From the NCBI GenBank assembly GCA_045598165.1, contig JAZLLN010000088.1, positions 56,588-120,587 of the forward strand: DNA of 64,000 nucleotides. The letters are read 5' to 3'. Below are positions 44,318 to 55,384 of this stretch, in pieces. The DNA is from Candidatus Cryptobacteroides sp. Its GTDB lineage: Bacteria; Bacteroidota; Bacteroidia; Bacteroidales; UBA932. The position numbers and the translations under genes are program-made. Within the stretch, counting starts at the first letter, position 1. Each line of letters opens with the position of its first letter. Below the pieces are notes generated by a model, which was not told the DNA's origin, ran no database searches, and saw nothing but the letters and a program-made list of their open reading frames with translations.

Positions 44318-45046
44318 ATGGACTATTCGGAAATCAAGAACAGCTGCGTATCGTGGATACGTGACTGGTTTGACAGGAACGGGAAAGATTGCTGTGCCGT
44401 GTTGGGAATGAGCGGAGGAAAGGACAGTACCGTTGCCGCCGCATTGTGTGCGGAGGCTCTCGGATGCAGCCGTGTCATAGGAGTGGCGATGCCGGCTGAA
44501 GGGCAGAGCCTGAATGATGCCGACGAGATATGCCGCTGGATAGGAATCCGCTATCTCTGCATCCCGATAGGAGATATCATCAATTCTTTTTCATCTCTCA
44601 CCTCTGAACTTGTTCTGTCAAAGCAGGCGGAGCAGAATGTTCCGCCGAGGGTCAGGATGACGGTTCTGTATGCAGTGTCCCAATCTCTGAACGGCAGGGT
44701 GGTGAATACCTGCAACCTGTCGGAAGACTGGGTGGGCTATGCTACCCGCTGGGGTGACAGTGTGGGGGATTTCAGTCCTCTCGGTTCTCTGGTGGTTCAG
44801 GAAATACGTGGTATCGGGCACGCCCTCGGCATTCCTTCAAAATGGGTTGACAAAACTCCCGATGACGGCCTTCCCCACAGTTGCTCGGATGAGCAGAAGT
44901 TCGGTTTCACATACGAAGTTCTGGACCGGTACATAAGGACCGGGGAGTGTGATGATAAGGAAGTGAAGGAGAAGATAGACGGTATGCATCGCCGCAATTG
45001 GTTCAAGATGTCCATGCCCGAAAGTTTCAACCCGTGGGAAAAGTAG
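44318..45046 (+). CDS. nadE: NH3-dependent NAD+ synthetase
   Basis: VLGMSGGKDS, NVPPRVRM, NLSE, GYATRWGD, KTPDDGL, DEQKFGFTY; no glutaminase domain. Confidence 0.93.
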   Translation: MDYSEIKNSCVSWIRDWFDRNGKDCCAVLGMSGGKDSTVAAALCAEALGCSRVIGVAMPAEGQSLNDADEICRWIGIRYLCIPIGDIINSFSSLTSELVLSKQAEQNVPPRVRMTVLYAVSQSLNGRVVNTCNLSEDWVGYATRWGDSVGDFSPLGSLVVQEIRGIGHALGIPSKWVDKTPDDGLPHSCSDEQKFGFTYEVLDRYIRTGECDDKEVKEKIDGMHRRNWFKMSMPESFNPWEK

Positions 45047-46239
45047 CGATTATCGGCGCCGGGGCGTCAGGGTGTTTTTGTGCAGTCAACATAAAGTCTG
45101 TGAGACCTGATGCGGAGGTCTCCGTGTTTGAGGCTGCTCCCGGTCCGATGGCAAAGTTGTCCCTTACCGGTGGCGGCCGTTGCAATCTTACGAATACATT
45201 TTCCAGTATTGACAATCTCCGTGAAGTATATCCGCGGGGATTCAATCTGACGAAGAGAACTTTTTCTTCTTTCGGTCCTGAGGAATGTCGCGCCTGGTTC
45301 GAAAAGGAAGGCGTGCGTCTTTATGCTCAGGCTGATGGAAGGGTTTTTCCGAGTTCCGATGATGCAATGGAGATTGTCGGCCTGCTGGCGGACAGAATGC
45401 GGAGAACCGGAGTTGAACTTCATTGCCGGCACAGGGTTATCGGCCTCAGAAAAGAAGAAAAGTTTATTCTTGACTTCGACGGCAGGCCTTCGTTCGAGGC
45501 GGATGTCGTTGTGGTGGCAAGCGGAGGAGGAACTGCCGGATTGCTCGGAAATCTGGGTTTGAAAACGGTTCCGCAGGTTCCTTCCCTGTTTTCGTTCAGG
45601 ATAGATGATGCTCCCTTGACCTCACTTATGGGTACTGTGGTCCCCAAAACGATTCTCGGTCTTGCAGGAACGAATTTCAGAGCGGAAGGAGAAATGCTTG
45701 TTACCGATTGGGGTGTGAGCGGCCCTGCAGTGTTGAGGTTGAGTTCTTATGCCGCCCGCAGGCTGGCGGAAATGAACTATATGGCGGATTTGACGGTGAA
45801 CTGGTTTGGAAGCGGTGAAGAAGAGGTTCGGAAATGGTTGCAGGGAGTAGCCGGGGAAAACGGACATAAGCAGGTCAGCAGCATCCATCCTGAAGGAATC
45901 AGCAACCGTACATGGAGGCATATCCTTTCCAGGGCCGGAATCCGTGAGGATTTGCGCTGGTCTGAACTGGGCACGAAGGGTGCCAACAGATGTGTTGCAT
46001 CAATCACTTCGGATACATATTCCATAACGGGGAGATGCAGATTCAAGGATGAATTCGTGACTTGCGGAGGAGTCAATCTTTCGGAAGTCAGTGCAAACAC
46101 GATGGAATCCAGAAAGATATCGGGGCTTTTCCTCACCGGCGAGGTGCTTGATGTGGATGCGGTGACAGGAGGTTTCAATCTGCAGGCTGCGTGGAGTACG
46201 GCTTATGTTGCAGGAGTGACAATTACGGAAAGAATTTAG
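45034..46239 (+). CDS. HI0933/BaiN-family flavoprotein
   Basis: IIGAGASG, KLSLTGGGRCNLTN, GRVFP, GEMLVTDWGVSGPAVL, GEVLDVDAVTGGFNLQAAW. GTG start inferred. Confidence 0.9.
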   Translation: MGKVAIIGAGASGCFCAVNIKSVRPDAEVSVFEAAPGPMAKLSLTGGGRCNLTNTFSSIDNLREVYPRGFNLTKRTFSSFGPEECRAWFEKEGVRLYAQADGRVFPSSDDAMEIVGLLADRMRRTGVELHCRHRVIGLRKEEKFILDFDGRPSFEADVVVVASGGGTAGLLGNLGLKTVPQVPSLFSFRIDDAPLTSLMGTVVPKTILGLAGTNFRAEGEMLVTDWGVSGPAVLRLSSYAARRLAEMNYMADLTVNWFGSGEEEVRKWLQGVAGENGHKQVSSIHPEGISNRTWRHILSRAGIREDLRWSELGTKGANRCVASITSDTYSITGRCRFKDEFVTCGGVNLSEVSANTMESRKISGLFLTGEVLDVDAVTGGFNLQAAWSTAYVAGVTITERI

Positions 46240-46247
46240 TATATTTG
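46240..46247 (+). promoter_or_regulatory. -7 promoter element (TATATTTG), probable promoter of the 46254-55384 gene run
   Basis: TAnnTTTG match 6 nt upstream of ATG 46254; downstream gaps are all 11 nt or less through 55384. Confidence 0.6.
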
Positions 46248-46253
46248 TAAGTT

Positions 46254-47048
46254 ATGATAATTCTCATCACGGGAATAACGTCAGGATTCGGCAAGGCGAT
46301 GGCTGAAAGACTGAGTGCCGACGGGCACAAGGTGTTCGGAACATTCCGCAAGGAATGTGACAGGATACCGGGGGTGACGTACCTCAAAGCTGATGTGCAG
46401 AATGAGGAAAACTGCAAAGCTGCTGTTGACAGCGTGGTCGCCGCTGAAGGTAGGATAGATGTTTTCATCAACAATGCAGGGATGGGGATAGGCGGTCCGC
46501 TGGAGTTCTGTTCCCTTGAGGATGCTCAGCTCCAGATGGATACCAACTTTATGGGAATGGTGCGTTTCCTGCATTTTGTTCTTCCGGTAATGAGAAATCA
46601 GGGTTCAGGAAAGATATTGTGTTTCAGCTCGATAGGCGGCCTTATGGGTCTGCCGTTCCAAGGCTTGTACAGTGCCAGCAAGTTTGCCATTGAAGGGTAT
46701 TGCGAGGCTTTGAGAATGGAAGTGAAGAGTTTCGGGATAGATGTTGTGGTGATAGAACCCGGAGACTTTGCCACAAAGTTCACGGCACAACGCAAATCTG
46801 TGACGGACGGAGAGGCTTATAGAATTTACAGAACCTACGCCGAGTCTCTGGCCAGCATAGAGAATGATGAACAGACGGGTCTGAAACCTGAATATCTTGC
46901 CGGGAAAATCAGCAGGATAGTGATGAAAAAGCATCCTGCCTGTTCTTATGTAATATCAACTTTCGAACAGTATCTTTCCACTGTTCTCAAGAGAGTTCTG
47001 CCTGCAAGATGGTTCTCGGCCATTCTCAGCAGTTATTATAAACTTTAA
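46254..47048 (+). CDS. Short-chain dehydrogenase/reductase
   Basis: TGITSGFG, NNAG, SSIGG, YSASK. Confidence 0.9.
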   Translation: MIILITGITSGFGKAMAERLSADGHKVFGTFRKECDRIPGVTYLKADVQNEENCKAAVDSVVAAEGRIDVFINNAGMGIGGPLEFCSLEDAQLQMDTNFMGMVRFLHFVLPVMRNQGSGKILCFSSIGGLMGLPFQGLYSASKFAIEGYCEALRMEVKSFGIDVVVIEPGDFATKFTAQRKSVTDGEAYRIYRTYAESLASIENDEQTGLKPEYLAGKISRIVMKKHPACSYVISTFEQYLSTVLKRVLPARWFSAILSSYYKL

Positions 47049-47059
47049 ATCACACGATT

Positions 47060-47881
47060 ATGCGAAAACTTCTTTTGCTGCCTCTGGCCATAATGATGGC
47101 CGCCTGTTCGTCTCAGGAACTTCAGGTTATGTCTTTCAACATCCGCCACGGTCTTGCCAACGACGGGGAGAATTCCTGGTCAAATCGTTGCCCCGCCACG
47201 ATTGCGATGCTGCAGGACCGGAAGCCGGATATTTTCGGTCTTCAGGAGGCGCGTGATTTTCAGATAGATTACATTTCAGAGAATCTTCCCGAGTACAGCA
47301 ATGTGGGAGTCGGCCGAGATGACGGAATCCGCGAAGGAGAGACAATGGCGATATTCTGGAACACATCCAAGATTGATCTTCTGGATTGGGGTACCTATTG
47401 GCTCTCGGAGACTCCTGAAGTGCCGTCAAAAGGATGGGATGCCGCCTGCATCCGTACCGCTACATGGTCGAAACTTAAAATGAAGGATAGTGGCAGGGAA
47501 TTCTTTTATGTCAACACGCATCTTGACCACATCGGGCCCATGGCACAGAAAAACGGTCTTGCCCTCATCGTCGAAAGGATTGCGACAATGAATCCCGACG
47601 GCATTCCTATGATTCTCACCGGAGACTTCAACGTGACGGCTGACAACCCCTGTCTGGAAGATCTCGACAACATGATGAAGAGCGCCCGTGTGGAGGCTCC
47701 GCATACCGACAACAGCATCACCTACAATGCCTGGGGCAATGAGGAGAATTCCTGCGTGATTGACTATATCTACTATTCAGGATTCGAGTCCTGTGACAAT
47801 TTCAAGGTAGTCAACCAGTCCTATGCCGGCATACCTTATGTCTCGGACCATTATCCCGTAACGACTACGCTGAAATTCTAG
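47060..47881 (+). CDS. EEP-family lipoprotein (phosphoesterase)
   Basis: Lipobox MAAC; MSFNIR, GLQE, VNTHLDH, GDFN, IDYI, SDHYP. Confidence 0.88.
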   Translation: MRKLLLLPLAIMMAACSSQELQVMSFNIRHGLANDGENSWSNRCPATIAMLQDRKPDIFGLQEARDFQIDYISENLPEYSNVGVGRDDGIREGETMAIFWNTSKIDLLDWGTYWLSETPEVPSKGWDAACIRTATWSKLKMKDSGREFFYVNTHLDHIGPMAQKNGLALIVERIATMNPDGIPMILTGDFNVTADNPCLEDLDNMMKSARVEAPHTDNSITYNAWGNEENSCVIDYIYYSGFESCDNFKVVNQSYAGIPYVSDHYPVTTTLKF

Positions 47882-47885
47882 GCTG

Positions 47886-49331
47886 ATGAAAAGACTGTTT
47901 GCAATTCTCACGTCACTTGCATTGCTTGTGGCAGTGGATGCCGGGGCGAAGATAACGTTCCCCTCGGTCATAAGCGACAATATGGTCCTTCAGCAGCAGA
48001 CCGAAGTTGCATTGTGGGGAAAGGCTGTGCCGGGCAAGACCGTGACAGTCAAGGCCGGTTGGGCAAAATCTCCCATAAGGACTGTCGCAGATTCTGAAAC
48101 CGGGAAATGGTCGGTGCGCATCTCAACGCCTGCTGCGGGTGGTCCGTATGAGATTACAGTCAGTGACGGAGAGGCTGTGACGCTGAAGAATGTCCTTGTC
48201 GGTGAGGTTTGGTTCTGCTCGGGCCAGTCCAATATGGAAATGCCTGTGAAGGGATATAATTCCCAACCGGCGAAGGGCGCGACTGAATTCATAGTGGGAG
48301 CGAAGGCTTCCCGCCCCATCAGAATCTGCAACATCAAGAAGAAATCTTCCAGGACTGTTGAAGAAGTCTCCGAAGGCAGCTGGGAAGAGCATGTCCCTTC
48401 CGTTGTGGCAAAGACCAGCGCCACGGCTTATTTCTTTGCCGAAGCTCTTCAGTCCGCCATTGATGTGCCTGTAGGCATCATTGTTTCCAGTTGGGGAGGC
48501 AGCAGCATCGAGACCTGGATCCCCCGTGAAGTGATAGCGAAGGATTTCCCCGAGTTCGACCTCAAGTTCCTGGATGACCCTTCCATAGAGGTTCACAACT
48601 ATCAGGCTCCCAGCCTTCTGTTCAACGGTCAGGTAGCTCCTCTTGTCCCTTATACCTTCAAGGGAATGATATGGTATCAGGGTGAGACCAACCGTTTCCG
48701 TCCCGCACAGTACATCCGTCTTCAGACAGCGTATGTTCAGGCAATGAGGGATATTTTCCAAGTTCCCGACGCTCCTTTCTACTTTGCTCAGATTGCTCCG
48801 TTCAAATACGGTGACGGCACCAATTGCGAACTGGGATATTTCAACGAAGCCCAGCAGAAGACTTTGGACTGCATTCCTCACAGCGGCATGGCGGTTCTCT
48901 GCGACATAGGTGAATTCGGTACGATACATCCCTGTGAGAAGCGGAAAGTCGGTCAGAGACTGGCTTATCTGGCCATGAGGCACGACTATGGCTTTGATTT
49001 CCTCGAGGCTGACGCTCCCCTCTATACGGGAGTGGAATTCAAGGAAGGCAAGGCTTACGTGAGTTTCAGCACGGGAACGGGACTTTCTCCGATGGGATGT
49101 GAACTCGGTGGATTCGAAATGGCCGGTGCCGACAAGGTTTATCACAAGGCGGTGGGAGAACTTTCAGGAAAGGACAACAGGGTAATCGTGGTAAGCTGCG
49201 CTGAAGTCCCGGAACCTGTTGCAGTCCGTTACTGTTTCCGTGACTGGAGTGAAGGTTCGGTATATAACAATTATGGAATTCCGGTTGCCCCGTTCCGTTC
49301 CGACGACTGGGCGAGGGAGGATGTTGAATGA
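47886..49331 (+). CDS. Sialate O-acetylesterase (SASA/SGNH) family protein
   Basis: Signal peptide; DNMVLQQ, GEVWFCSGQSNM, WGGSSIETW, WYQGE, IHP. Confidence 0.88.
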   Translation: MKRLFAILTSLALLVAVDAGAKITFPSVISDNMVLQQQTEVALWGKAVPGKTVTVKAGWAKSPIRTVADSETGKWSVRISTPAAGGPYEITVSDGEAVTLKNVLVGEVWFCSGQSNMEMPVKGYNSQPAKGATEFIVGAKASRPIRICNIKKKSSRTVEEVSEGSWEEHVPSVVAKTSATAYFFAEALQSAIDVPVGIIVSSWGGSSIETWIPREVIAKDFPEFDLKFLDDPSIEVHNYQAPSLLFNGQVAPLVPYTFKGMIWYQGETNRFRPAQYIRLQTAYVQAMRDIFQVPDAPFYFAQIAPFKYGDGTNCELGYFNEAQQKTLDCIPHSGMAVLCDIGEFGTIHPCEKRKVGQRLAYLAMRHDYGFDFLEADAPLYTGVEFKEGKAYVSFSTGTGLSPMGCELGGFEMAGADKVYHKAVGELSGKDNRVIVVSCAEVPEPVAVRYCFRDWSEGSVYNNYGIPVAPFRSDDWAREDVE

Positions 49332-50440
49332 TTATGGCAGACAGCCTGGAAAAATACGGTCTGGATCTCCACTGTACGATGATTCTCGAGGAATACCGCG
49401 GGAATCTTGATGTGTTTGAGAAAATCAGGAGCATAGCATGCGACATCCTGAAGAAGAACATATCCGACAACGGAATATACCTGAATGCCATCGAGTCCAG
49501 GGTGAAGACTGAGAAAAGCCTTGCCGGCAAACTGGAACTCAAGGGGTCGAAGTATTCCTCCCTTGATGACATCACCGATATCGTGGGTCTGAGGGTCATA
49601 ACGTTCTACAGTGATGAGGTTGACAAGATTTCCGCCATGGTGGACAGGCTGTTTGAAATAGACTGGACGAACAGCGTGGACAAGCGCAAGATGCACGAAC
49701 TCGACAGTTTCGGCTACAATTCGTTGCACTACGTCTGCAGGATTCCAAAAACGCTGTATAATGATCCCGAGCATCCTGAGATCAACACGTACAGACTGGA
49801 AATTCAGATGCGGACGGCTCTCCAGCACGTCTGGGCTACAATGTACCACGATACCGGTTATAAATCCGGAGTTGAGGTCCCAAAAGAATATCTCCGCAAT
49901 CTCAACAGGCTTGCCGGTATGATGGAACTGGCTGACGAGCAGTTCAGTCTGATAAGGACCAATATCAACAACTACAGACGCGGGGTGCAGAAGCTGGTGT
50001 CAAGCGGCCGTTTCGATGACGTGCCTCTTAACGGAGACTCTTTCAAAAGTTATCTTGAACTCAGGCCTTTCGACAAATTGGTCAAGAAGATAGCGGCTAT
50101 CAACCAGGCCGAAATCCACGAATCATCCATACTTCCCTACCTTCAGGTATTCAAACATTTCAACTTTGAGACGCTCGGCGATGTTGACAGGTTCATCAAG
50201 GAGAATAGTGATGATGCCTATAATCTCGCTGTATATCAGATAGGAAACACTGATTTGGACATTATCTCTTCCACGGTTGCCGTCCAGGACCTTTGTGTCG
50301 TCTGTATCCTGAAGAAAAAAGGTGGAGTCGGAGGTCTCAAGCGGATGTTCGACATTCTTGGCGGACGTTCCGATTACAACGAGGCAAGGGCGGAGAGAAT
50401 TGTGGAGACAGCCAGGCAGTTACCTTTTATGAATGAATAG
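49328..50440 (+). CDS. Small alarmone synthetase (RelA/SpoT synthetase-only protein) with C-terminal extension
   Basis: RVKTEKSLAGKL, DIVGLRVI, GYNSLHY, EIQMRT, QHVWATMYHDTGYK; no HD, TGS or ACT domain. Start may be ATG 49334. Confidence 0.88.
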   Translation: MIMADSLEKYGLDLHCTMILEEYRGNLDVFEKIRSIACDILKKNISDNGIYLNAIESRVKTEKSLAGKLELKGSKYSSLDDITDIVGLRVITFYSDEVDKISAMVDRLFEIDWTNSVDKRKMHELDSFGYNSLHYVCRIPKTLYNDPEHPEINTYRLEIQMRTALQHVWATMYHDTGYKSGVEVPKEYLRNLNRLAGMMELADEQFSLIRTNINNYRRGVQKLVSSGRFDDVPLNGDSFKSYLELRPFDKLVKKIAAINQAEIHESSILPYLQVFKHFNFETLGDVDRFIKENSDDAYNLAVYQIGNTDLDIISSTVAVQDLCVVCILKKKGGVGGLKRMFDILGGRSDYNEARAERIVETARQLPFMNE

Positions 50441-50442
50441 TT

Positions 50443-51024
50443 ATGGCAAACAGATATTTGGATACGACATTTGTAGACAAGGCGATAAAGTTCGCAGTGG
50501 ACGCCCATGCCAATACGGAACGCAGGGGAAAAGGTTTCCCTTATGTCATTCACGTTCTGGAGGCAATGGAAATCGTGGCATCAATGAGCAATGACCCCGA
50601 ACTGCTGGCTGCGGCCGCATTGCATGATACTGTGGAGGACACAGGAGTAACGGTGGAAGAAATCAAGTCCGGGTTCGGTGAAAAGGTTGCGAATCTTGTG
50701 AAAGCCGAGTCCGATGTGATTGACAGCAGTGTCAGTGAAACGGAAAGTTGGAGGTCACGCAAGCAGGCTGCAATTGACAGGCTCTCTTCGGCAAGTCTGG
50801 AAGCGAAGATGGTTGCCTTGGGTGACAAACTGTCCAATATGAGGGCTATTGCCAGGGATTATAAGAAATCAGGGGACAAACTGTGGGAGATTTTTCACGC
50901 TCCGGGTGGAAAGTCCGATCATGAATGGCACTACCGCGGACTTACCGAAGCTCTTTCGGACCTTGAGGGAACGGACGCTTATGCGGAGTTTATATCATTG
51001 ATAGATGGAGTTTTCAAAAGATAA
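50443..51024 (+). CDS. Small alarmone hydrolase (stand-alone HD domain, Mesh1/SpoT-HD-like)
   Basis: AH...RRGKGFPYVIHVLE, AAALHDTVEDT, FGEKVANLV, GDKLSNMR. Confidence 0.88.
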   Translation: MANRYLDTTFVDKAIKFAVDAHANTERRGKGFPYVIHVLEAMEIVASMSNDPELLAAAALHDTVEDTGVTVEEIKSGFGEKVANLVKAESDVIDSSVSETESWRSRKQAAIDRLSSASLEAKMVALGDKLSNMRAIARDYKKSGDKLWEIFHAPGGKSDHEWHYRGLTEALSDLEGTDAYAEFISLIDGVFKR

Positions 51025-51033
51025 TTTAACGGT

Positions 51034-51426
51034 ATGATTCGAAAATTCAGTCCGGTAGAAGGAAGAAATGCGGAAATCATCGAAGCGGTGATGAGCTGTC
51101 CGGAAGTTGTGGATCTTCCCGACGAAATGAAATTCAAAATCCGCCTTTGTGTGGAGGAGGTCGAGGAAAACATTCTCGATTATTCGGGTACAACCTGGGT
51201 GGAGGTCAGCGTGGATGCCGCCACGGACCAGTTGAAGGTGATGTTCAAGGATGGGGGCATAGAATTTGACCCTCTTGATTCTCCCGAGCCGGATATCACC
51301 TCTCCCGTTGAAGAAAGAAAGATAGGTGGGCTTGGAATCTTTCTGTGCAAGCAGATGATGGATTCCCTGGACTATCACTACGAAAACGGCAGCAATATTT
51401 TCACGATGGTAAAAAAAATCAAATAA
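51034..51426 (+). CDS. RsbW/SpoIIAB-like anti-sigma-factor Ser/Thr kinase (HATPase_c)
   Basis: N-box EEVEENILDY, D-box DGGIEFDP, G-box ERKIGGLGIFL, then DSLDY...N. Confidence 0.88.
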   Translation: MIRKFSPVEGRNAEIIEAVMSCPEVVDLPDEMKFKIRLCVEEVEENILDYSGTTWVEVSVDAATDQLKVMFKDGGIEFDPLDSPEPDITSPVEERKIGGLGIFLCKQMMDSLDYHYENGSNIFTMVKKIK

Positions 51427-51429
51427 ATT

Positions 51430-51732
51430 ATGAACGTAGAAATTACAAGGGAAAGCGCAAAAACTTTCGTCAAACTTTCAGGCAGGCTTGATACCACGAA
51501 CGCTGATCAGTTCCAGAAAGACATTACCCCTTTGATGGAGGATCCGAAGCCTGATTTTGAAATAGACTGTACGGATATGGAGTACACTTCAAGTCAGGGA
51601 TTGAGACTTTTCCTGATGCTTCAGAAAGCTGTATCTTCCAAAGGAGGCGCAATGGTCATGACAAATATGAAGCCTCAGGTCAAGGAAGTCTTCGATATCA
51701 CGGGATTCTCAAATATCATCAGAATCATATAG
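51430..51732 (+). CDS. STAS-domain anti-anti-sigma factor (RsbV/SpoIIAA-like)
   Basis: LSGRLDT, IDCTDMEYTSSQGLR (phospho-acceptor Ser context), EVFDITGF. Confidence 0.9.
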   Translation: MNVEITRESAKTFVKLSGRLDTTNADQFQKDITPLMEDPKPDFEIDCTDMEYTSSQGLRLFLMLQKAVSSKGGAMVMTNMKPQVKEVFDITGFSNIIRII

Positions 51733-52536
51733 ATGGATTTTGCTTCCCAAAGCATAGGACTGAGCACTGTCTTCAATGCCCGGGATTTGGGTGGTTATGT
51801 CCTTCCGGGAGGCCGTTCTGTAAAGAAAGGCCTGCTGTTGAGGGGCGGTGATCTTGCAAGGATTTCGGATGAAGAGGTCGCTGTACTGAAGGAAAGGTAC
51901 AATCTTTCGAAGGTGTTTGATTTCCGTACAAGTATGGAAGTCAAGAATCTGCCGGACAGGGAGATTCCCGGCGCAAGCAATATCTGGATGCCGGCATTCA
52001 ATGAAGGAAGCCAGAAAATGGAGGAGATGGTTCTTCCCAGGGAGGCGTACGTGGATCTTGGCGGGTGGCTGGTGAAACATGCAGGGAATGTCAAGGTGCA
52101 GTCGGTAGCCAGGGAAATGTACGCCGGGCTCGTCACGGACGATTTTACTCAGATGCAGTATGCGGGTTTCCTGCAGAACATAGTCAACACGCCCTCGGGG
52201 GCTGTGTATTGGCACTGTTCACAGGGAAAGGACAGAACCGGTATCGCCGCAGCCCTGGTCCTTACGGCGCTCGGAGCCGACAGGGACCTTGTAATGGCAG
52301 ATTACGGGATTTCCAATGAATTCTATAAGGAAGACGTTGACCGTTATTGCTCGCTTCTGGGTACCGCGGAGGAACGGGAGGTTATCCGGACTTTCATCGG
52401 TGTGAATCCTCGTTATTTCGGCCAGGCTCTTGACTTGCTCGAAGCGCAGTATGGTTCACTTATGGAATTTCTCACCGGCCCGTTGTGCCTGTCACGGGAA
52501 GACATTTTGATTTTACGCGAAAGATATACCGAATGA
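51733..52536 (+). CDS. Cys-based tyrosine/dual-specificity phosphatase (PtpB/IphP-like)
   Basis: FNARDLGG, LLRGG, FDFRT, HCSQGKDRTG (CX5R P-loop), DY.ISN. Confidence 0.88.
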   Translation: MDFASQSIGLSTVFNARDLGGYVLPGGRSVKKGLLLRGGDLARISDEEVAVLKERYNLSKVFDFRTSMEVKNLPDREIPGASNIWMPAFNEGSQKMEEMVLPREAYVDLGGWLVKHAGNVKVQSVAREMYAGLVTDDFTQMQYAGFLQNIVNTPSGAVYWHCSQGKDRTGIAAALVLTALGADRDLVMADYGISNEFYKEDVDRYCSLLGTAEEREVIRTFIGVNPRYFGQALDLLEAQYGSLMEFLTGPLCLSREDILILRERYTE

Positions 52537-53477
52537 AACGGACACTGACTTCAATATTGTTGTTTCTGTGCGCATTAAGCCTGAATGCACAGAAACTTAC
52601 GTTCGTTCCGCAATGGACGGCACAGACTCAGTTCGCGGGCTATTACATGGCACTGGAAAAGGGATATTACGCAGAGGAGGGACTGGATGTGTTCATCAAT
52701 CATCTCAAGGCCAATTCTTCCGAGACTTCCATGGATATGCTGCTGAACGGTAAGGCCGAGATTGTAGGCCAGCAGCTGATTCAGTCTGTCATTGCCCGTG
52801 CTGACGGAGTGAAACTGGTCAATGTTTTCCAACTGACTCAGGAAAGCGGGCTCTGTTGTGTATCCAGGACACCTATCAGTGAACCCAAGGATATGGATTC
52901 ACTGCGTGTAGGGCGGTGGAAGGTGGGATATGCGGATTTTTGCGACATGCTTGAAGCGTATACGGGCATCAGGGTCAACTGGGTTCCTTTTCTGAACGGA
53001 ATCAATCTTTTCATTTACGGTGCCGTGGACGCTACGCTGTGCTATTCTTACAGTGAACTTATCTCTCTCGATCTTGCAATCGGCAATATTCCGGAAGATC
53101 ACGTCATCCGATTCTCGAATTTCGGATATGAGTGTCCCGAAGACGGACTCTATGTCACGGAGGAATATTACAGGAAGAACAAAGAAACCGTCGACAAATT
53201 CGTAAAAGCTTCAAAACGCGGATGGGATTATGTCAGAGGACATAGGGAAGAGGCGTTGGAGGTCACATACAAATTCATTGAGGCGAACAGAATAAGCACT
53301 AACAGGGAACATCAGAAGAGGATGCTTGACGAGTATCTGAGTCTTCAGATCAACGGGCATACGGGATGCACGGACTATGCACCTGTGAGGGAACCGGTGT
53401 TCCGTGATATTGTCGGGGCACTGTTGAATACCGGTTATATTACAAGCAATGTTGAATACAGCGATCTGATCAAATGA
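52533..53477 (+). CDS. NMT1/THI5-like periplasmic substrate-binding protein (orphan)
   Basis: Signal peptide MKRTLTSILLFLCALSLNA; PQWTAQTQFAGYYMALEKGYYAEEGLDV; FVKASKRGWDY. Confidence 0.82.
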   Translation: MKRTLTSILLFLCALSLNAQKLTFVPQWTAQTQFAGYYMALEKGYYAEEGLDVFINHLKANSSETSMDMLLNGKAEIVGQQLIQSVIARADGVKLVNVFQLTQESGLCCVSRTPISEPKDMDSLRVGRWKVGYADFCDMLEAYTGIRVNWVPFLNGINLFIYGAVDATLCYSYSELISLDLAIGNIPEDHVIRFSNFGYECPEDGLYVTEEYYRKNKETVDKFVKASKRGWDYVRGHREEALEVTYKFIEANRISTNREHQKRMLDEYLSLQINGHTGCTDYAPVREPVFRDIVGALLNTGYITSNVEYSDLIK

Positions 53478-55384
53478 AAATCAAGGAATCTTTTTCTGCC
53501 AAGCTCAGTCTGGGCATTCTTGCGGTCACATCCGTGATATTCATCATAACCATAGGCATCTCCGCATTTTTCTCGCAGAAGATATTGGTCGAAGAGGCTA
53601 CCAAGTCTGCCGAGAGCCTCAGGGATGCGACTGTAGCCAATATAGAGAAAATTCTCAAGGACGTTGAAATATCAGTGATTGCATCATCCTGGCTTGTCAA
53701 AGAGAATATCAGCAATGAGGAGTATCTTTATCATATCACACATAAACTTGTGGAGGAGAATCCGAACATTGTGGGAAGTGCAATCGCTTTCGAAAAAAAC
53801 TATTTCCCCGGGAAATACTATTTCAGTCCTTACTCCTATCTCGATGCCGGGACAGGTGAAGTGATATCAAAACAGTTGGGAAACCAGCAGTATGATTATT
53901 TCTATATGGACTGGTATCAGATCCCGTCCCTTCTTGAGGGCCCCTGTTGGGGCGAGCCCTATTATGATGAGGGAGGGGGAGAGTATATGATGGCTACGTA
54001 CAGCTATCCTCTCAAGGATGATGAAGGGAAAGTGTTTGCCGTTATGACGGCTGATATTTCTCTTTTCTGGATTTCCGAGATGCTTGCCGGTATAAAGCCA
54101 TATCCCAATTCAAACGTGATGCTCATCAGCCGTAACGGCTCTTATATCTCACAGGGGTCGAAAACGGATCTGACGGGAGAAACGATATTCTCCACCTTGT
54201 ATTACACTGAAGACGGCGACGGCAGACTTGAAAAGGTAGCCCAGGCATTGAGTGAGGGGAAAAAGGGATCCATGCAATACAGACAGGGTACGGAAATTTC
54301 ATTTGCGGTTTTTGCCCCTCTCGACAACGGATGGAAAGCATGTATCACCTGTGGTTATCGGGAAATCCTTTCACGATTGGATCAGATGAGGTTGATTGTG
54401 TTCATTCTCAGCATCTTCGGAATCCTGGTACTCTTCATTGTGTCGTACGTTGCAATAAGGAGGATAATACAGCCTTTGCTTGAGTTCTCCAAATCGGTGA
54501 TGAACATAGCGAAGGGAGATTTCAACACCACTCTTCCGGAAATCCAGAGTGAAGATGAAATCAAGAAGCTCAGGGATTCCTTCGAGTATATGCAGACCTC
54601 TCTCAAGGAATACATAAGCGAACTGAAGACCACCACCGCGGCAAACCAGAAATTTGAAAGCGAACTCAGCATTGCCAACGCCATTCAGATGGCTATGCTT
54701 TCAAAGAACTTCCCGCATACGGACAGGGTCGACGCCTTTGCGCTGGTACAGCCCGCCAGGGAAGTCGGAGGGGACCTGTACGATTTCTTCATAGAAAAGG
54801 ACAGGTATCTTTATTTTGCCGTCGGTGACGTGTCCGGAAAGGGTGTTCCGGCATCTCTCGTAATGGCAATCACAAGGGCGGCATTCCGTTTCATTGCCAA
54901 AATGGGATTGTCTATGGAGGAAGTCGTGGGTAAGATGAACGACACTCTTTCCGAGGGTAACGATACGGGAATGTTCGTGACATTCTTTGCCGGAAAGATA
55001 GATTTGCAGACCGGAGAATTCGAATATTGCAACGCGGGCCACAATCCCATTGTGGTCATATCTCCGGACGGCAAGGCGGAATATCTCAAGCCGAAGTCGA
55101 ATCTTGCGCTGGGCCTTTTCCCCCAGTTCCCCTATGTCCTTGAGAAGGGCCGTGTGGAGAAGGGTTCAAGCCTGGTGCTCTATACGGACGGAGTCACGGA
55201 AGCTGAGCGCGTGGACAAGGAACAGTTCGGTGAAGAACAACTTATCGGCTGGGCCGGTAAATACCGTGGCAGTTATGCAAATGCTGACGAATCCTGCCAT
55301 CAGCTTCTGAATGAGGTCAAGGCATTCACTGCCGGCAATGAGCCGAATGATGATATAACGATAATGACAATAGACCTTAAATAG
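53474..55384 (+). CDS. Membrane sensor phosphatase: TM-dCache-TM-HAMP-SpoIIE(PP2C), RsbU-like
   Basis: Two TM helices flanking a Cache-like region (DWYQ..WGEPYYD..TADI); HAMP (QPL...IAKGDF...DEIKKL); PP2C motifs EVGGDLYD, GDVSGKG, MFVT, NAGH, LYTDGVTEA, DDIT. Confidence 0.9.
   Translation: MKIKESFSAKLSLGILAVTSVIFIITIGISAFFSQKILVEEATKSAESLRDATVANIEKILKDVEISVIASSWLVKENISNEEYLYHITHKLVEENPNIVGSAIAFEKNYFPGKYYFSPYSYLDAGTGEVISKQLGNQQYDYFYMDWYQIPSLLEGPCWGEPYYDEGGGEYMMATYSYPLKDDEGKVFAVMTADISLFWISEMLAGIKPYPNSNVMLISRNGSYISQGSKTDLTGETIFSTLYYTEDGDGRLEKVAQALSEGKKGSMQYRQGTEISFAVFAPLDNGWKACITCGYREILSRLDQMRLIVFILSIFGILVLFIVSYVAIRRIIQPLLEFSKSVMNIAKGDFNTTLPEIQSEDEIKKLRDSFEYMQTSLKEYISELKTTTAANQKFESELSIANAIQMAMLSKNFPHTDRVDAFALVQPAREVGGDLYDFFIEKDRYLYFAVGDVSGKGVPASLVMAITRAAFRFIAKMGLSMEEVVGKMNDTLSEGNDTGMFVTFFAGKIDLQTGEFEYCNAGHNPIVVISPDGKAEYLKPKSNLALGLFPQFPYVLEKGRVEKGSSLVLYTDGVTEAERVDKEQFGEEQLIGWAGKYRGSYANADESCHQLLNEVKAFTAGNEPNDDITIMTIDLK

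Follow-up and report, generated by a model that had tools for sequence, protein, structure and literature searches.

A candidate partner switch linked to a small alarmone synthetase in gut Bacteroidales

The window analyzed here, a 64,000-nt stretch of a Candidatus Cryptobacteroides sp. contig (JAZLLN010000088.1, positions 56,588 to 120,587), carries a run of seven genes that brings enzymes of alarmone metabolism together with the components of a putative partner switch. It encodes a small alarmone synthetase (SAS), a small alarmone hydrolase (SAH), an RsbW-like serine kinase, a STAS switch protein, a Cys-based phosphatase (PTP), an NMT1/THI5-type solute-binding protein and a membrane sensor phosphatase of the PP2C type (Table 1). 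Open reading frames (ORFs) of the window were read directly, domains were assigned with Pfam and NCBIfam, and motifs were located by residue search. ORF coordinates and domain searches agree with the original prediction of seven same-strand genes with intergenic gaps of +2, +9, +3, 0, −4 and −4 nt. Every catalytic or acceptor motif checked in the seven proteins is present, as had also been claimed, and the motifs are conserved over 29-74 homologs per family.

Table 1 Features of the seven-gene cluster and its upstream region in the window
Feature	Position	Strand	Basis or remark
Four-gene run (flavoprotein, SDR, EEP-family phosphatase/nuclease, sialate-esterase-like)	44998-49331	+	precedes SAS
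Bacteroidetes-type -7 promoter motif TATATTTG	46240-46247	+	nearest upstream of SAS, just before SDR gene
Sialate-esterase-like gene	47886-49331	+	overlaps SAS start by 4 nt
SAS (small alarmone synthetase), 370 aa	49328-50440	+	Pfam RelA_SpoT 1.8e-17
SAS motif DITDIVGLR	49568-49594	+	DxxDxxGxR
SAS motif GYNSLH	49712-49729	+	GYxSxH
SAS motif EIQMRT	49799-49816	+	ExQxRT
SAS C-terminal domain, residues 205-370	49940-50437	+	no Pfam match; mostly helical
SAH (small alarmone hydrolase), 193 aa	50443-51024	+	Pfam HD_4 2.2e-21
SAH motif HD	50623-50628	+	
RsbW/SpoIIAB-like serine kinase, 130 aa	51034-51426	+	Pfam HATPase_c_2 4.7e-17
STAS anti-sigma-antagonist-like switch protein, 100 aa	51430-51732	+	Pfam STAS 9.9e-18
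STAS Ser55	51592-51594	+	predicted phospho-acceptor
Cys-based phosphatase (PTP; MptpB-like), 267 aa	51733-52536	+	Pfam Y_phosphatase3 1.9e-53
Phosphatase motif HCSQGKDRTG	52213-52242	+	conserved among homologs
NMT1/THI5-type solute-binding protein, 314 aa (ATG at 52533)	52533-53477	+	Pfam NMT1 5.2e-30
Sensor phosphatase TM-dCache-TM-HAMP-PP2C (SpoIIE family; TM, transmembrane segment), 636 aa	53474-55384	+	Pfam SpoIIE 1.1e-50, MCP-like PDC 4.1e-28, HAMP 8.6e-11

An SAS alignment was scanned against 185,579 species genomes, which gave 80 loci with flanks of up to 10 kb. Six-frame ORFs of these loci were searched with hidden Markov models built for each of nine families, and loci with 6 kb or more on each side of SAS are referred to as fully flanked. 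Co-conservation of SAS/SAH with the partner-switch genes, the point on which the original prediction had staked itself, was found: switch genes are linked to SAS in 52 of the 62 Bacteroidales species-level loci. Across these 62 loci we counted RsbW in 49, STAS in 48, SAH in 45, PP2C in 38, an APH-like kinase described below in 31, PTP in 26 and NMT1 in 11; the corresponding numbers for the 33 fully flanked Bacteroidales loci are 29, 29, 21, 21, 18, 16 and 8. RsbW and STAS both lie beside SAS in 29 of the fully flanked loci, and RsbW, STAS and PP2C in 21. The kinase gene is directly followed by STAS in 19 loci. More than 30 different gene orders occur, among them SAS-SAH-RsbW-STAS-PTP, SAS-SAH-APH-(Cache~PP2C~RsbW)-STAS and (Cache~PP2C~RsbW)-STAS-SAS-APH-SAH-PTP, where tildes join fused genes, as well as divergent arrangements. 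Because the gene set persists through so many rearrangements, it appears to form a functional unit. Earlier, either SAS or SAH had been proposed to receive the output of the switch. Comparative linkage supports a coupling, but more closely to SAS than to SAH: RsbW and STAS are found in 29 of the 33 fully flanked loci versus 21 for SAH, and RsbW-STAS-(PTP)-SAS loci lack SAH. Judged by gene content, the link of the switch to SAS is at least as tight as that to SAH.

The window belongs to a 2.4-Mb metagenome-assembled genome (97.5% complete) whose closest named relatives are Candidatus Cryptobacteroides and Bacteroidales from the horse and ruminant gut. It holds one SAS, one SAH and two long RelA/SpoT homolog (RSH) enzymes, together with two STAS, three HATPase_c_2 and three SpoIIE-type PP2C genes. 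With so few of these genes in 2.4 Mb, the probability that switch genes would adjoin the single SAS at random is about 2%. An independent, even sample of the order, comprising 392 high-quality genomes from 226 genera, contained SAS in eight genomes and five genera. Besides the window's genome there were seven carriers, all represented by five loci; in five of the seven, switch genes lie beside SAS, and in the other two SAS is accompanied by SAH only. In rumen and hindgut metagenomes the SAS family is abundant, with thousands of homologs.

The association also holds where the genes are apart. Of 25 genomes from the genus, 12 contain SAS, the RsbW-like kinase and STAS together, and the remaining 13, six of them at least 93% complete, contain none of the three. 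In one of the carriers (G024), SAS and the RsbW-STAS pair lie on different contigs. Five Bacteroidales genomes with a lone SAS all carry a Cache-PP2C/STAS operon elsewhere, with RsbW or APH, and in four of the five the STAS protein is 57-72% identical to that of the window. As co-occurrence survives unlinking, the tie seems to be functional rather than positional.

A search of 1.84 billion representatives with the SAS C-terminal domain and a follow-up search recovered three fusion proteins of 521 aa each (P0133, P0215 and P0216) with the arrangement HATPase_c_2-RelA_SpoT-C-terminal domain. They are 81-82% identical to one another; substitutions are spread across both halves, the linker is conserved and the kinase motifs are intact. 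Two were found in a single NCBI metagenome assembly, on separate but syntenic contigs, and the third derives from the Joint Genome Institute. Three diverged copies from separate contigs and sources, all with intact motifs, indicate a maintained gene and not a sequencing error, and the fusion speaks for the RsbW-like protein and SAS working in physical association. Two further candidates, P0121 (FtsI-like N terminus~SAS) and P0127 (amidohydrolase~SAS), were rejected as they join abruptly inside SAS and look like chimeric assemblies, which is a caution against taking single fusion records as evidence.

RsbU/RsbV/RsbW partner switches normally control SigB/SigF-type sigma factors, and a few Proteobacteria are known to use partner switches to drive diguanylate cyclases. 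The cascade had been predicted to lack a sigma factor, and for the SigB/SigF type this now extends to the whole genome: no such group-3 sigma was found in the window's 97.5%-complete genome, in which the one sigma factor with region 3 is a 288-aa RpoD-like protein and the others have the size of extracytoplasmic function sigma factors. Across the 80 loci, no sigma or regulator gene recurs.

Linkage, co-occurrence, the unlinked cases, the fusion and the absence of a SigB/SigF-type sigma factor thus support the predicted partner switch with an alarmone output. We hold with moderate confidence that the cluster would be a partner switch whose output, reached through direct protein contact, is an alarmone synthetase instead of a sigma factor, with an outside chemical signal probably setting alarmone levels. 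A fuller version, to which we give slightly better than an even chance, has the RsbW-type kinase and STAS re-targeted from a sigma factor to SAS in a periplasmic-ligand-gated, ribosome-independent (p)ppGpp pathway of herbivore-gut Bacteroidales that includes a dedicated APH-like kinase/Cys-phosphatase pair and a new SAS C-terminal fold. In such a pathway, a ligand in the periplasm would bind the NMT1-type protein, the dCache domain or both and in this way set the activity of the membrane PP2C. The RsbW-like kinase would add phosphate to Ser55 of STAS and PP2C would remove it. The RsbW-like protein would also hold SAS, taking the role played elsewhere by an anti-sigma factor, and unphosphorylated STAS would compete for it, so that SAS is freed or activated. 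SAS would then make a (p)ppGpp-type nucleotide that SAH removes, and the alarmone level would track the external signal independently of the ribosome. We favor sequestration of SAS by RsbW and relief by STAS because of the kinase~SAS fusion; all protein contacts, the sign of regulation, the product and the ligand are here inferred from sequence.

Several observations weigh against this proposal, and they concern both the contact that is made and the coupling itself. The genomes compared are related and do not represent independent samples, and the kinase~SAS fusion is limited to one small clade. In many relatives the kinase and the membrane phosphatase form a single protein, so that STAS is the sole freely diffusing part; these kinase~phosphatase fusions agree with a contact between STAS and SAS no less well than with one between RsbW and SAS. 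The same system might therefore work through a SiaC/HsbA-like contact in which unphosphorylated STAS directly activates or inhibits SAS and the RsbW-like protein is only the STAS kinase. STAS is the immediate upstream neighbor of SAS in 16 loci, and it is the sole soluble messenger in the frequent Cache~PP2C~RsbW fusion. A 44%-identity SAS homolog in the even sample has STAS on both sides of SAS-SAH (STAS-SAS-SAH-STAS-PTP) with no RsbW in view, and all three characterized diguanylate-cyclase partner switches act via a STAS-like protein (PMC8457831). On the other hand, the only fusion found links the kinase, not STAS, to SAS, and no STAS~SAS fusion was present among 94 representatives carrying the SAS C-terminal domain. 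We regard direct control by STAS as a tentative and rather unlikely alternative to SAS sequestration by RsbW.

Further points against the proposal bear on whether switch and synthetase are coupled at all. Bacteroidales of other families carry RsbW/STAS without this SAS, so partner switches of this kind have other outputs too. In all 11 fully flanked Fibrobacter loci the SAH-SAS pair has no switch beside it; most of the Fibrobacter loci show SAH-SAS only, and similar PP2C~RsbW-STAS modules lie elsewhere in these genomes. Distant SAS homologs sharing the C-terminal domain likewise stand without an adjacent switch, and so does the one Firmicutes-like homolog examined; from these and the Fibrobacter cases it follows that SAS can work without an adjacent switch and that possession of the C-terminal domain is not tied to one. 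In a sister species (88% SAS identity), synteny with the window extends from the flavoprotein gene to genes past ComF, but NMT1 and Cache-HAMP-PP2C are missing between PTP and ComF (L024:12411-13902). This absence, together with paralogous Cache-HAMP-PP2C genes that the species carries elsewhere, indicates that the sensory input is exchangeable. Partner switches without this SAS, a second switch in the window's own genome that adjoins a gene resembling those for nonribosomal peptide synthetases (NRPSs), and the Fibrobacter pairs without an adjacent switch would all suit mere co-regulation, in which the switch controls another target and SAS/SAH are co-expressed in a stress regulon with no physical coupling. 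This is improbable in our view: the kinase~SAS fusion is kept at 81-82% identity, co-occurrence in the genus is perfect with the unlinked cases included, the genome is devoid of a SigB/SigF-type sigma, and the clusters share no recurring regulator gene.

The architecture of SAS bears on a further alternative. The protein combines a RelQ/RelP-like synthetase domain (about residues 1-200) with a family-specific C-terminal domain and has no HD domain; its three catalytic motifs are conserved among homologs. In an AlphaFold2 (AF2) model of the full-length protein (predicted local distance difference test score (pLDDT) 88), the best Foldseek matches of the N-terminal half are Bacillus subtilis SAS1/SAS2 and Staphylococcus aureus RelP, with template modeling (TM) scores of ~0.8 on the target; the full-length model matched structures over the synthetase half only. 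A sequence-profile search of the PDB returned RelP/RelQ at 5e-17 versus the tRNA pyrophosphokinase CapRel at 3e-4. This greater closeness to RelP/RelQ than to CapRel is the sole pointer to the product, presumed to be a (p)ppGpp-type nucleotide. SAS scores 55 bits against the NCBIfam YjbM equivalog model, far below the cut-off of 320, and so is not a RelQ orthologue. RelQ and RelP are its best structural and profile matches, and it has the same catalytic motifs, but it differs in its extra 165-aa C-terminal domain of unknown fold and in its putative operon, which also contains a hydrolase and a partner switch. Regulation of RelQ and RelP is known to work via transcription, pppGpp and RNA, and neither is known to be under a partner switch.

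Modeled alone, the SAS C-terminal domain is mostly helical (AF2, pLDDT 94) and has no structural match in the PDB or among the viral models of BFVD (E > 1, TM < 0.33). Among the 1.84 billion representatives searched, every occurrence of the domain follows a RelA_SpoT domain belonging to this SAS family. We considered it as a mimic of a sigma-factor domain or of the CapRel antitoxin domain, for which the lack of a structural match left no support. Its candidacy as a switch-docking module is weakened by the Fibrobacter and distant homologs, which keep the domain without an adjacent switch. One distant homolog with the same C-terminal domain ends an acetolactate-synthase (ilvB/ilvN-like) operon (L131:2342-9074), with a cluster-type STAS gene 5.4 kb upstream.

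SAS directly beside SAH recalls toxic SAS (toxSAS) systems, and the cluster could be a growth-arrest or phage-defense module in which a toxic SAS, acting through ppApp or tRNA pyrophosphorylation, is paired with SAH as a type IV antitoxin and gated by the switch. SAS-SAH or SAH-SAS adjacency is the commonest gene pair (31 + 10 + 15 loci), and SAH antitoxins of toxSAS enzymes are established (PMC7229694). The distribution is patchy, as the 12 of 25 genus genomes and 8 of 392 order genomes illustrate, SAS carries an extra C-terminal domain as in fused CapRel, and it has a partial, domain-level PADLOC match to PDC-S33. In a midpoint-rooted tree, the Fibrobacter SAS proteins (L033-L068, L087; 60-66% identity) form one clade with a Shimodaira-Hasegawa-like approximate likelihood ratio test (SH-aLRT) support of 98 that nests among Bacteroidales clades, which suggests transfer between phyla among herbivore-gut bacteria. 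Other features speak against a toxin module. The SAS profile and fold are far nearer RelP/RelQ than CapRel, its C-terminal domain has no match among viral or CapRel-type structures, and six of the seven proteins have no defense-model match in PADLOC. The context is of a housekeeping kind and fully syntenic with the sister species, and periplasmic Cache and solute-binding sensors suit small molecules, not phage proteins. Several lineages keep RsbW-STAS-SAS without a nearby SAH, and 12 of the 33 fully flanked loci have no SAH. The fusion, the RelP/RelQ-like domain, the stable context, the sensors of small-molecule type and the few defense matches make co-regulation and a toxSAS module less likely than a switch acting on SAS, and we consider the toxSAS module very improbable.

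Known systems provide precedents for the logic of the proposed pathway. Partner switches that control diguanylate cyclases are SiaABCD of Pseudomonas aeruginosa, HptB-HsbR-HsbA-HsbD and BgrSTUWV-BgrR of Sinorhizobium meliloti; in SiaABCD, a PP2C phosphatase (SiaA, with HAMP) and an RsbW-like kinase set the phosphorylation state of a small switch protein (PMC8457831). The likeness of the window's cluster to these systems (SiaABCD, HsbA-HsbD and BgrV-BgrR) lies in their logic, with an output enzyme that makes a nucleotide second messenger in place of a sigma factor. It differs from SiaABCD in its putative output, a RelA/SpoT-type synthetase with a paired hydrolase and not a GGDEF cyclase, and in its canonical STAS protein with Ser, whereas SiaC is a DUF1987 protein with Thr. 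The two are not orthologous, the SiaA match being partial (70 versus 700 bits). Periplasmic Cache and solute-binding-protein input and APH-like and PTP enzymes set the window's system further apart, and its only fusion points to a kinase-SAS contact. With the Bacillus switches RsbU/RsbV/RsbW (SigB) and SpoIIE/SpoIIAA/SpoIIAB (SigF), it has the same three protein families with intact motifs in common. Unlike them, it has no cognate group-3 sigma factor in cluster or genome, a short 130-aa kinase below the RsbW/SpoIIAB equivalog cut-offs and an alarmone synthetase as the conserved neighbor and, in one clade, the fusion partner. The toxSAS systems (FaRel-ATfaRel SAH; fused CapRel) resemble it in the direct adjacency of SAS and SAH, sometimes overlapping, and in the C-terminal extension, but here SAS is nearer RelP/RelQ, lies in a housekeeping syntenic context and is tied to a cascade of environmental sensing; SAH antitoxins, but no partner switch, are described in the toxSAS paper (PMC7229694). 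Judged by these analogies, parts and logic are known from other partner switches, and an alarmone synthetase as output would be new.

Synthesis of (p)ppGpp by long RSH enzymes is known to respond to the ribosome and acyl-carrier protein, and that by small synthetases to transcription, pppGpp, RNA or antitoxins. If correct, the proposed pathway would for the first time place an alarmone under a partner switch, adding a new mode of SAS regulation and a new output class for partner switching. It would also provide a first means for an extracellular chemical cue to set the alarmone level post-translationally, and would explain the role of 'orphan' RsbW/STAS pairs in a phylum without SigB/SigF-type sigma factors. 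It may matter for how fiber-degrading gut bacteria slow growth in response to nutrients. Full-text literature searches found no paper linking partner switching to SAS or alarmones. A 2011 survey of RSH proteins listed no SAS for Bacteroidia and, for Fibrobacter, only unplaced 'divRel' sequences (PMC3153485).

SAH is a stand-alone HD_4 domain with HD, ED and DxLxN motifs; these (HD, ED, GDKLSNMR) are conserved across 74 homologs. Among solved structures, small alarmone hydrolases and Rel hydrolase domains come nearest to it. The kinase has the N-box EEVEEN, DGGIEFDP and GGLGI, and the N-box, DxGxxFDP and GGLGI are conserved in 63 homologs. With 31.8 bits against the NCBIfam RsbW model (cut-off 145) and a score below the SpoIIAB equivalog cut-off as well, it is, by sequence, a member of the HATPase_c_2 serine kinase family and not an RsbW/SpoIIAB orthologue. 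STAS exceeds the 53.45-bit cut-off of TIGR00377, the anti-sigma-antagonist superfamily model, with 73.6 bits, and in its motif YTSSQGLR the residues S, S, G, L and R are each at least 95% conserved over 62 homologs. The Cys-phosphatase matches PDB entry 8dhi (5.7e-29) and Mycobacterium tuberculosis PtpB (1e-12). Its gene usually follows STAS or SAH and lies directly after STAS in 16 of the 26 Bacteroidales loci that contain it. The NMT1 protein bears an N-terminal signal-like segment and is annotated as secreted. In the sensor phosphatase, hydrophobic segments at about residues 6-39 and 302-335 flank the Cache region, and the PP2C metal-binding motifs GGDLYD, GDVSGKG, YTDG and NDDIT are present; its best NCBIfam match, SiaA, covers HAMP and the early PP2C region and reaches 70 bits against a cut-off of 700.

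An APH-like kinase, encoded outside the window, is a further member. Relatives repeatedly have its gene within their clusters, in many cases joined to that of SAH, and it matches TIGR02172 ('Fibrobacter succinogenes paralogous family') with 211-236 bits, the cut-off of 228.2 bits being passed by the SAH~APH fusion only. The kinase motifs HGDxxxxN and DLG are retained. The orthologue in the window's genome (285 aa; C27:26941-27798) sits between an S4-like and a folD-like gene, and the presence profile across the genus equals that of SAS plus one extra weak match. On this genomic evidence, the TIGR02172 APH-like kinase and the Cys-phosphatase belong to the same system, and they may constitute a second kinase/phosphatase pair that targets a protein or nucleotide of the system.

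The predicted seven-gene operon stands as far as its content goes, with all seven genes present, but the layout is specific to the window's genome. Of the 12 loci carrying NMT1, 11 have it immediately before the Cache-PP2C gene; among the 62 Bacteroidales loci, it precedes Cache~PP2C nine times and Cache~PP2C~RsbW twice. In a genus relative, a HipA-like kinase pair (Couple_hipA and HipA_C; L015:3453-4720) adjoins the SAS-SAH-RsbW-STAS-PTP cluster. Spacing does not delimit the 5' end of the operon, as the genes of the upstream run are equally tight (gaps of 14, 11, 4 and −4 nt into SAS) and the esterase gene overlaps SAS. The -7 motif could, as a weak indication, mark the start of a longer transcription unit. 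No further + strand TAnnTTTG follows from 46247 to 54999; the motif is not enriched across the window (33 found versus 28 expected), and scans of the window for sigma-70 promoters and terminators performed no better than on shuffled sequence. We rejected the upstream esterase as a member of the system since its conservation is limited to the syntenic sister species and a search of 11 genus-relative loci did not find it. The upstream four-gene block as a whole is syntenic in the sister species and not in other relatives.

Further switch-type genes were located elsewhere in the window's genome. A third Cache/PP2C gene (C122:7181-8334) appears to be split into two overlapping ORFs beside recombinase-like ORFs, which may reflect pseudogenization or an assembly fault. 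Two multi-pass membrane proteins of ~575-585 aa with a C-terminal HATPase_c_2 domain (C105:365-2122 and C24:20789-22507) adjoin adenylation- or condensation-like genes. The second Cache-PP2C (594 aa) and STAS (100 aa) pair, directly upstream of a 3083-aa NRPS-like ORF (C65:115003-126363), may represent another non-sigma output of partner switching.

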